DNA of 64,000 nucleotides from Escherichia coli (GCF_003334305.1 NZ_QOWS01000015.1), one strand, 5' to 3'. Shown: positions 43,856-45,126, counted from the first letter of the stretch. The notes: generated by a model not told the origin, from the letters alone. Program-made: numbers and translations.

Positions 43856-45064
43856 GTGAAACGATTACAGGCATTTAAATTCCAGTTAAGACCAGGTGGT
43901 CAACAGGAGTGTGAAATGAGGCGCTTCGCAGGCGCATGTCGTTTCGTTTTCAATCGTGCTCTGGCACGTCAGAATGAGAATCATGAGGCCGGTAATAAAT
44001 ACATCCCTTACGGGAAAATGGCTTCCTGGCTGGTTGAGTGGAAAAACGCCACTGAAACGCAATGGCTTAAAGATTCGCCCTCACAGCCATTGCAACAGTC
44101 ACTGAAAGACCTTGAGCGGGCTTACAAAAACTTCTTCCGGAAGCGGGCTGCTTTTCCCCGATTCAAAAAGCGGGGACAGAATGATGCATTCCGCTACCCG
44201 CAGGGCGTAAAGCTCGATCAGGAAAACAGCCGTATTTTTCTGCCGAAACTGGGCTGGATGCGCTACCGGAATAGCCGTCAGGTCACGGGTGTTGTGAAAA
44301 ATGTCACGGTCAGCCAGTCCTGCGGTAAGTGGTACATCAGTATTCAGACAGAAAGTGAAGTATCCACTCCGGTTCACCCTTCAGCATCAATGGTCGGGCT
44401 GGATGCTGGCGTGGCTAAACTCGCCACGCTGTCAGATGGCACAGTCTTTGAGCCTGTAAACAGTTTTCAGAAAAACCAGAAGACGCTGGCGAGACTTCAG
44501 CGACAGTTAAGCCGCAAGGTCAAATTCAGCAACAACTGGCAGAAGCAGAAACGCAAAATACAGCGACTGCATTCCCGTATCGCAAATATCCGCAGGGACT
44601 ACCTTCACAAAGTCACAACGACCGTCAGCAAAAACCACGCAATGATAGTCATTGAGGATTTGAAGGTCAGCAACATGTCAAAGTCAGCAGCGGGTACGGT
44701 CAGCCAGCCGGGGCGCAATGTCCGGGCAAAATCAGGTTTAAACCGTTCGATACTGGATCAGGGCTGGTATGAAATGCGCCGCCAGCTTGAGTACAAGCAG
44801 CTCTGGAGTGGCGGTCAGGTGCTTGCTGCTCCGCCAGCGTACACAAGCCAGCGTTGCGCGTGCTGTGGTCATACAGCGAAAGAAAATCGCCTGTCACAAA
44901 GTCAATTCAGATGCCAGGTATGTGGATATACAGCGAACGCCGATGTAAACGGCGCTCGTAACATTTTAGCGGCGGGGCACGCCGTTCTTGCCTGTGGAGA
45001 GATGGTGCAGTCAGGCCGCTCGTTGAAGCAGGAACCCACCGAAATGATTCAGGCGACAGCCTGA
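43856..45064 (+). CDS. tnpB: TnpB (IS605 OrfB) RuvC-like RNA-guided endonuclease
   Basis: 402-aa ORF; N-terminal FKFQLRP...CRFVFNRAL, RuvC-like GLDAG / IEDLK / [10 protein letters not shown], zinc finger CACCGH...CQVCGY. Confidence 0.85.
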
Positions 45065-45126
45065 ACGTAGCAGGGATCCTCGTCATTCAGGGCGTGGAGG
45101 ATGTCAAGACACGGAAAACGAACATG
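44900..45126 (+). ncRNA. Predicted omega-RNA (right-end RNA) scaffold plus guide for TnpB
   Basis: Inferred by analogy to characterised TnpB systems, where the RNA overlaps the tnpB 3' end and the right end; not directly detected. Confidence 0.3.
45077..45100 (+). repeat. Predicted IS right-end subterminal imperfect hairpin
   Basis: CCTCGTCATTCAGGGCGTGGAGG; direct-repeat partner of the left-end hairpin. Confidence 0.45.

Follow-up and report, generated by a model that had tools for sequence, protein, structure and literature searches.

An IS609 element with an intact tnpB gene and a predicted omega-RNA at the yoaG 3' end of Escherichia coli

Does an insertion sequence resident in the Escherichia coli chromosome still encode an RNA-guided nuclease, and which DNA would its guide specify? 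The question is raised by a 64,000-nucleotide stretch of E. coli DNA (GCF_003334305.1, NZ_QOWS01000015.1; this whole stretch is called the window below), in which a first-pass annotation had described an apparently intact TnpB protein with a predicted omega-RNA at positions 43,856 to 45,126. We found that the gene belongs to a complete copy of the insertion sequence IS609, a name that the first-pass annotation had not given it, and that both tnpA and tnpB are intact in this copy. In the reading that we prefer, and to which we assign a probability of about 0.85, an omega-RNA from the right end of this element guides TnpB to a TTAT-flanked target, and the element is retained or copied. IS609, the NCBI annotation of its product as an RNA-guided endonuclease and the TnpB/omega-RNA mechanism are already known, and the finding is in that respect an ordinary one.

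We defined the element by comparison with the empty site in E. coli K-12. The yeaR-yeaQ region of strain MG1655 aligns with the window in two blocks, which adjoin in K-12 and are 1748 bp apart in the window. The empty site aligned up to 43359 and again from 45108, and both junctions are unambiguous, without shared or duplicated bases. The insertion point follows 5'-TTAT at the 3' end of yoaG, within its last codons. The ends of the element and the sequences that adjoin them are:

43360..45107, + strand: complete IS609 element (IS200/IS605 family), 1748 bp, ends from the empty K-12 site
43356..43359, + strand: TTAT, insertion target and predicted target-adjacent motif (TAM), directly 5' of the left end
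43360..43416, + strand: left end with subterminal hairpin CCCCGTCC-TTCA-GGGCGGGG at 43376-43395, from the single-stranded DNA (ssDNA) fold
45104..45107, + strand: TCAA, right-end cleavage tetranucleotide and last bases of the element, a conserved end
45108..45127, + strand: predicted guide GACACGGAAAACGAACATGA, in the yoaG 3' end/yoaG-yeaQ flank, starting at the first base past the right end

The element has no terminal inverted repeats and no target duplication, carries subterminal hairpins at both ends and is preceded by a fixed tetranucleotide, as is characteristic of the IS200/IS605 family. Its left end folds as ssDNA with -14.1 kcal/mol (z -2.7), and the left-end sequence is conserved in all E. 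coli copies. The single IS609/insQ locus of K-12 is 98.2% identical to the element over 1748 bp; it corresponds to the one IS609 that MG1655 has in the count of Lee et al. (PMC5009759). The tnpA gene of another copy at the yoaG site is labelled 'IS200/IS605-like element IS609 family transposase' by the NCBI prokaryotic genome annotation pipeline (PGAP). Matches to the element were found in 5015 of 5426 complete E. coli genomes, 4859 of which hold at least 80% of it. Judged by its sequence, the element is a copy of IS609, a catalogued E. coli insertion sequence that more than 90% of the complete E. coli genomes carry. The window contains neither a second IS609 copy nor a solo right end.

We read nine E. 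coli loci representing eight distinct insertion sites, the window included: yoaG, yedK, a DUF3251/YajI gene (in two strains), ydcO, a TetR gene, yfeD, a site near yidH and a phage-like plasmid. At each of the eight the left end directly follows TTAT, and the base 5' of TTAT varies. The expectation that the TAM would lie directly 5' of the left end agrees with these sites, the predicted motif being TTAT. On the right, the E. coli copies finish with ...GGAGGATGTCAA, or with GGGTGTCAA in the case of the plasmid, and the flanks past this point are unrelated. The 65 distinct full-length relatives are conserved precisely up to ...GATGTCAA and have unrelated sequence over the 20 bases that follow; each of them, like every E. 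coli copy, ends in CAA, and in nearly all cases in GTCAA. Since the right end is at 45107, the guide would begin at 45108 (GACACGGAAAACGAAC...). The start near 45111 given by the first-pass annotation is thus corrected by three bases upstream, on the strength of the empty-site junction and the conserved ends. Its proposal that the guide is taken from the adjacent flank agrees with the finding that each copy has a different, unrelated sequence past its right end, which is what a guide would show.

For the guide, a length of 16-20 nt was assumed from characterised TnpBs. The guide 16-mer occurs once in the window, and the same guide sequence follows TTAT in the empty K-12 allele. Going by the sequence match, the perfect target of the guide (TTAT + GACACGGAAAACGAACATGA) is the empty yoaG allele. 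The occupied site would be protected from self-targeting, because there GTCAA, and not TTAT, precedes the DNA that matches the guide.

We then analyzed the protein that would use this guide. The two genes of the element are:

43856..45064, + strand: tnpB, 402-aa RNA-guided endonuclease by family annotation (Pfam, NCBIfam), open reading frame (ORF) with a GTG start
43417..43848, - strand: tnpA, Y1 (HUH) transposase, 143 aa, by NCBIfam match and uninterrupted ORF

The genes are divergent, with the tnpB start 7 bp from the tnpA start. The tnpA product matches NCBIfam transpos_IS200 (NF033573) with 142.8 bits (cut-off 55) and has the HVH motifs and the C-terminal Tyr region. The tnpB product matches NCBIfam guided_TnpB (NF040570) with 384.8 bits (cut-off 100) and contains the Pfam domains HTH_OrfB_IS605 (PF12323), OrfB_IS605 (PF01385) and Cas12f1-like_TNB (PF07282). 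The same ORF in strain A7, whose sequence is 100% identical, is annotated by PGAP as 'RNA-guided endonuclease InsQ/TnpB family protein'. We located GLDAG at residues 181-185 (D183), IEDLK at 266-270 (E267) and the third RuvC segment at 362-371 (D363), as well as the zinc-finger motifs CACCGH (334-339) and CQVCGY (353-358), which supply the ligands C334/C337/C353/C356. All motifs quoted by the first-pass annotation were recovered in the translation.

A HMMER alignment to ISDra2 TnpB (PDB 8bf8/8exa/8h1j; E 2e-55) places D183, E267 and D363 opposite the GVDVG, GTEHLK and DRDEN motifs of ISDra2, and both CxxC pairs opposite its zinc ligands. The RuvC motifs, when aligned, contain no inactivating substitution, the three acidic residues matching the catalytic motifs of ISDra2. 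When 15 homologues of 46-60% identity were aligned with the window TnpB, C334, C337, C353, C356 and D363 proved invariant, and E267 nearly so. The window TnpB differs from other E. coli copies at 4-13 positions, none of them catalytic, and the sole difference particular to it is the conservative A325, a Val in every other copy read. The description of TnpB as full length, with the RuvC triad and the zinc finger preserved, is thus upheld by Pfam, NCBIfam, the ISDra2 alignment and homologue conservation alike. In two of the homologues (P0133 and P0134, about 46-51% identity), AVAMG/AVHMG replaces GxDxG; the first RuvC Asp is gone, and the equivalents of E267 and D363 are kept. Judged by these sequences, they may be nuclease-dead TnpB derivatives.

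Does the right end also encode a guide RNA scaffold? A homologue search returned only near-identical E. coli proteins, which were of no use for covariation, and was replaced by a representative search and a contig scan. A search of 1.84 billion cluster representatives gave 33,654 at E-values up to 0.001; an alignment of 16 TnpB representatives, scanned over one genome per species, yielded 80 loci, mostly from Proteobacteria, with TnpB proteins 56-84% identical. Five IS609/ISAba30-type scaffolds supplied a profile of their last 140 nt, which detected the region in 80 of 80 loci. In an alignment of 40 sequences, RNAalifold proposed 37 pairs, 25 with compensatory changes. The fraction of alignment cells that are paired is 93.6%, versus 37-47% when the partners are slid, and 223 cells are changed on both sides, versus 37-48 in the slid controls. 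None of 500 shuffles reached any observed covariation value. The structure comprises:

44964..45107, + strand: core of the predicted omega-RNA (right-end element RNA, reRNA) scaffold, from covariation and covariance model R1
44970-74 with 44980-84, + strand: scaffold helix, from the covariation alignment
44991..45034, + strand: RAGATH-18-like stem (CCUGUGGAG...GUUGAAGCAGGAA), from an Rfam sub-threshold match and covariation
45039-40 with 45073-74, enclosing 45044-55 with 45058-68, + strand: scaffold helix, from the covariation alignment
45077-85 with 45090-98, + strand: terminal hairpin helix, from the covariation alignment

In the RAGATH-18-like stem, covariation supports the pairs 44991-94/45029-32, 45000/45024 and 45004-06/45015-17. 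A long-range pairing of GAU (44942-44944) with GUC (45103-45105), also proposed by RNAalifold, showed no double-sided changes and is not claimed here. We built covariance model R1 from 37 relatives, excluding every E. coli sequence. It gave one full-length match in the window, at 44964-45107 (136.3 bits, E 3.8e-39), and an additional weak match at the left end, through its hairpin part. No omega-RNA family of Rfam came out above threshold, either when 43000-45600 was scanned by E-value or when the whole window was scanned at gathering thresholds. The covariance-model search suggested by the first-pass annotation thus came out negative with the Rfam omega-RNA families and positive with the model from non-E. 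coli relatives. Rfam RAGATH-18 (RF03064) scored 29.5 bits at 44991-45034 (E 0.0074), below its gathering threshold of 44.9, and the resemblance is confined to the stem and the kink-turn (K-turn)-like core. Rfam matches to snoRNA, HgcC, CRISPR-DR28 and sot0042 were at chance level. A structure obtained with MAFFT and RNAalifold from seven published scaffolds was dropped, as ISDra2 and ISDge10 were misaligned in mid-scaffold because IS609 has an extra stem.

By analogy to published scaffolds, the scaffold may extend upstream to about 44901-44921, and we predict the natural 5' end of the RNA to lie between about 44901 and 44964. The first-pass estimate of 44900-45110 for the scaffold was about right: the covarying structure overlaps the 3' end of tnpB and stops exactly at the right end. 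In many relatives (at least fourteen loci), about 30-40 nt are inserted in the loop of the right-end hairpin and form one or two small hairpins themselves (e.g. CCGCGCAAGCGG + GGCCACAGGCC); the terminal stem thus tolerates large insertions.

A mechanism can be proposed by analogy to ISDra2 and the Geobacillus IS605-family TnpB systems, from which we infer that the RNA would be transcribed and processed, that cleavage would depend on the TAM and that the element would home. A transcript that spans the right end together with the 3' portion of tnpB would fold into the omega-RNA scaffold, with its core at 44964-45107, and would run about 16-20 nt into the flank, those bases from 45108 (GACACGGAAAACGAAC...) serving as the guide. 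TnpB would bind this omega-RNA and cut DNA in which TTAT is followed by a match to the guide. The sequence cut would be the donor joint, which excision of the element by TnpA creates anew, and likewise that of the empty yoaG allele. Repair of the break by recombination from a copy that carries the element would then retain or copy the insertion sequence.

The alternative that survives best is that the yoaG copy is an immobilised remnant, with TnpB and its RNA inactive in this lineage and the intact ORF a result of recent decay or of gene conversion from other copies, not of function at this locus. We consider this unlikely. It draws first on the following feature:

45077..45098, + strand: right-end subterminal hairpin, last scaffold stem and predicted TnpA binding site, with two mispairs

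The hairpin reads CCTCGTCA-TTCA-GGGCGTGG in the window and CCACGTCC-TTCA-GGGCGTGG in K-12, and the window mispairs are 45080 T.T 45095 and 45085 A.G 45090. As ssDNA, the window sequence folds with -4.5 kcal/mol (z -0.26), and the hairpin is no longer predicted; the values for K-12 are -9.3 kcal/mol and z -2.4. Y1 transposases bind such hairpins in single-stranded DNA, as in IS608, so that the window copy, with its mispaired hairpin, may excise poorly and may be poorly mobile. The variant is common to all five yoaG-site copies read and to the yfeD copy.

A number of further observations weigh against our preferred reading, and most of them fit an immobilised remnant. Both affected hairpin pairs are kept in 39 of 40 aligned sequences, the window being the sole exception. 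The copy is old and fixed: the five yoaG-site copies differ mutually at 9-26 positions, amounting to a divergence of up to 1.5%, and the insertion at this same site is carried by 1097 of 5426 complete E. coli genomes. Among the copies at yoaG, some carry tnpA as a pseudogene, and one (strain A38) has a stop in tnpB. The mosaic sharing of one tnpA stop between sites suggests conversion between copies. The K-12 IS609 never transposed in mutation-accumulation lines (PMC5009759). As to the RNA, a single-sequence fold of 44880-45107 is not significantly stable (z -1.73), and its minimum free energy structure differs from the covariation structure. A crude promoter and terminator scan of the + strand over 43200-45400 found no sigma-70-like promoter, and our literature search of searchable papers found neither an E. 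coli insQ guide RNA nor cis-cleavage by IS609 TnpB.

Selection on the two genes nevertheless argues against a mere remnant. At the other seven E. coli sites, tnpA contains stops in all cases and frameshifts as well in three, and tnpB is open there. Among the eight E. coli copies, the pooled ratio of nonsynonymous to synonymous polymorphism (pN/pS) is 0.26 for tnpB versus 0.78 for tnpA, so that in these same copies tnpB is under purifying selection in E. coli and tnpA, often a pseudogene, is not. The corresponding divergence ratio (dN/dS) of tnpB against its Serratia plymuthica ortholog is 0.077. Every catalytic residue of the window TnpB is intact, as are its scaffold helices apart from the terminal hairpin, and as RNA this stem still has -8.5 kcal/mol (-15.4 in K-12). 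The equivalent stem of SfaTnpB can be trimmed with activity kept, according to the SfaTnpB paper (Nucleic Acids Research 2026, PMC12781874). We thus favor an intact IS609 with a functional TnpB and omega-RNA over an immobilised remnant.

The tnpA stop shared between sites was seen as the same nonsense codon (...VSGR-stop-LRRD...) in five copies, at yedK, ydcO, the TetR gene, the YajI gene and yoaG. At yoaG it is present in one copy, and other copies at this site have Leu there. This distribution suggests either that an element with a defective tnpA was mobilised in trans or that the copies have undergone gene conversion with one another.

It is very improbable that the structure at 44964-45107 reflects, at the DNA level, recognition of the right end by TnpA or a coding constraint, and not an RNA. 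The hairpin at 45077-45098 and the bases 5' of it would be a recognition target of a Y1 transposase in ssDNA, as in IS608, and the region up to 45064 is coding. However, the covarying helices reach to about 140 nt upstream of the end (44970-84, 44991-45032 and 45039-74) with many compensatory changes, and the left end has only the hairpin in common with this structure. The same layout is found in the experimentally used omega-RNA scaffolds of ISDra2, ISDge10 and ISAba30, and the region is also similar to the RAGATH-18 core that cryo-electron microscopy has visualised in IS607 reRNAs (PMC11061315). Least probable of all is a TldR-like TnpB, dead as a nuclease and domesticated as an RNA-guided regulator of transcription, a reading that would fit the selection on tnpB amid tnpA decay and the loss of the first catalytic Asp in the distant homologues P0133 and P0134, but that we reject for the window TnpB, which keeps D183, E267, D363 and the zinc finger and is encoded inside a complete insertion sequence with both ends, its guide being simply the insertion flank.

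What would an active IS609 TnpB mean for its host? The uninterrupted yoaG allele is present in 4318 of 5426 genomes (about 80%), as determined with an 80-nt probe that spans the K-12 junction and matches continuously. If the nuclease is active, it would cut DNA of this empty allele arriving by conjugation or transduction. It is doubtful, though conceivable, that the yoaG-site IS609 has been immobilised by its weak hairpin, with TnpB and the guide RNA under selection and the guide fixed on one allele, and that the RAGATH-18-like core extends beyond IS607. Were this true and the nuclease active, the locus would behave as an allele-specific drive or hinder the replacement of this chromosomal segment between E. 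coli lineages, and a RAGATH-18-like core together with a Y1 transposase would mean that the motif is not restricted to IS607 TnpBs. Endogenous IS609 TnpB, if active, would be relevant to the use of E. coli hosts in TnpB work and to studies of inter-lineage recombination. New points of the analysis are the covariation-supported scaffold structure of the IS609 clade, the RAGATH-18-like core alongside a Y1 transposase, the damaged right-end hairpin and the population frequency of the guide's target allele. For the window copy, we add the exact ends, the predicted TAM and the guide start, and for E. coli copies in general the purifying selection on tnpB amid tnpA decay.

The surroundings of the element identify the window as E. 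coli chromosome. Over positions 42800-45600, identity to strain A7 is 100% and that to many other strains reaches at least 99.9%, and the gene order is dmlR, leuE, yeaR, yoaG, the IS609 element, yeaQ, yoaJ/K and dgcP. The insertion alters yoaG (43213-43401), exchanging its K-12 C-terminus ...RSYDTENEHDVCGW for ...RSYPVRRKTPSFRAGI, which is encoded by the IS609 left end. The resulting product is the 62-aa variant WP_000513743.1, annotated in all filled-site genomes listed. The phage-like plasmid pCUPF12A (NZ_CP182160, 40097-41432) carries a shorter IS609-related element of 1336 bp with both ends and tnpB, without tnpA; its neighbours are a lysozyme gene on one side and a head-processing gene on the other, and it is also inserted after TTAT. 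In the Rfam scan of the whole window, a cspA-type thermoregulator 5' untranslated region (14961-15421) and the small RNA sroD (34471-34556) reached the gathering threshold; both are unrelated to IS609.

We compared the locus with other TnpB systems. The ISDra2 TnpB-omega-RNA system of Deinococcus radiodurans has the same domain order, catalytic D/E/D and zinc finger as the window TnpB, and its scaffold, like that of IS609, overlaps the tnpB 3' end and finishes in ...UCAA at the right end. Both scaffolds have a UGGAG...GAAG-stem-GAAUC-hairpin layout in common. The ISDra2 TAM is TTGAT and differs from the TTAT of IS609. Unlike ISDra2, IS609 places an additional stem-loop (45039-45074) between its K-turn-like stem and its terminal hairpin, and it has a 15-residue insertion after the E267 motif of TnpB and a divergent tnpA.

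Another counterpart is the IS609-like TnpB of the SfaTnpB paper (PMC12781874), which lists TTAT as its predicted TAM (Table S2) and gives scaffolds for ISDra2 (173 nt), ISDge10, three ISAba30-type systems and the IS609-like system (207 nt; Table S3). We found that these scaffolds share one order, a UGGAG...GAAG stem, GAAUC, a hairpin and ...UCAA. That paper reports that the IS609-like ortholog was purified and assayed with the TAM TTAT and the corresponding scaffold. The 207-nt scaffold and 44901-45107 can be aligned base for base; the differences in the stems, such as GAG/CUC versus GGG/CCC, are compensatory. The IS609-like protein is metagenomic and differs from the window TnpB at many positions, and its terminal hairpin is perfect (CCCCGUCC-UUUA-GGGCGGGG), whereas that of the window is mispaired.

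The K-12 copy at insQ/ydcM agrees with the window copy in its ends and its TTAT target, and the two 402-aa TnpB proteins differ at 9 residues. The K-12 copy sits between ydcL and ydcO, whereas the window copy is at the yoaG 3' end; its tnpA has an internal stop, whereas that of the window is intact; and its right-end hairpin is perfect, whereas the window hairpin has 2 mispairs.

RAGATH-18 is the core of the IS607 TnpB guide RNA and has been reported with IS607 TnpB only (PMC11061315). The IS607 reRNA and the window have in common the motif CCUGUGGAG...GAUGAAGCAGGAA, located in the guide-RNA scaffold about 70 nt upstream of the guide. The internal loop of the window structure is 17 nt, versus 44 in RAGATH-18, and the window element has a Y1 (IS200/IS605) transposase, whereas RAGATH-18 elements have the IS607 serine recombinase. 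From these sequence comparisons, the RAGATH-18-like motif is probably an older core shared by the guide RNAs of TnpB proteins.

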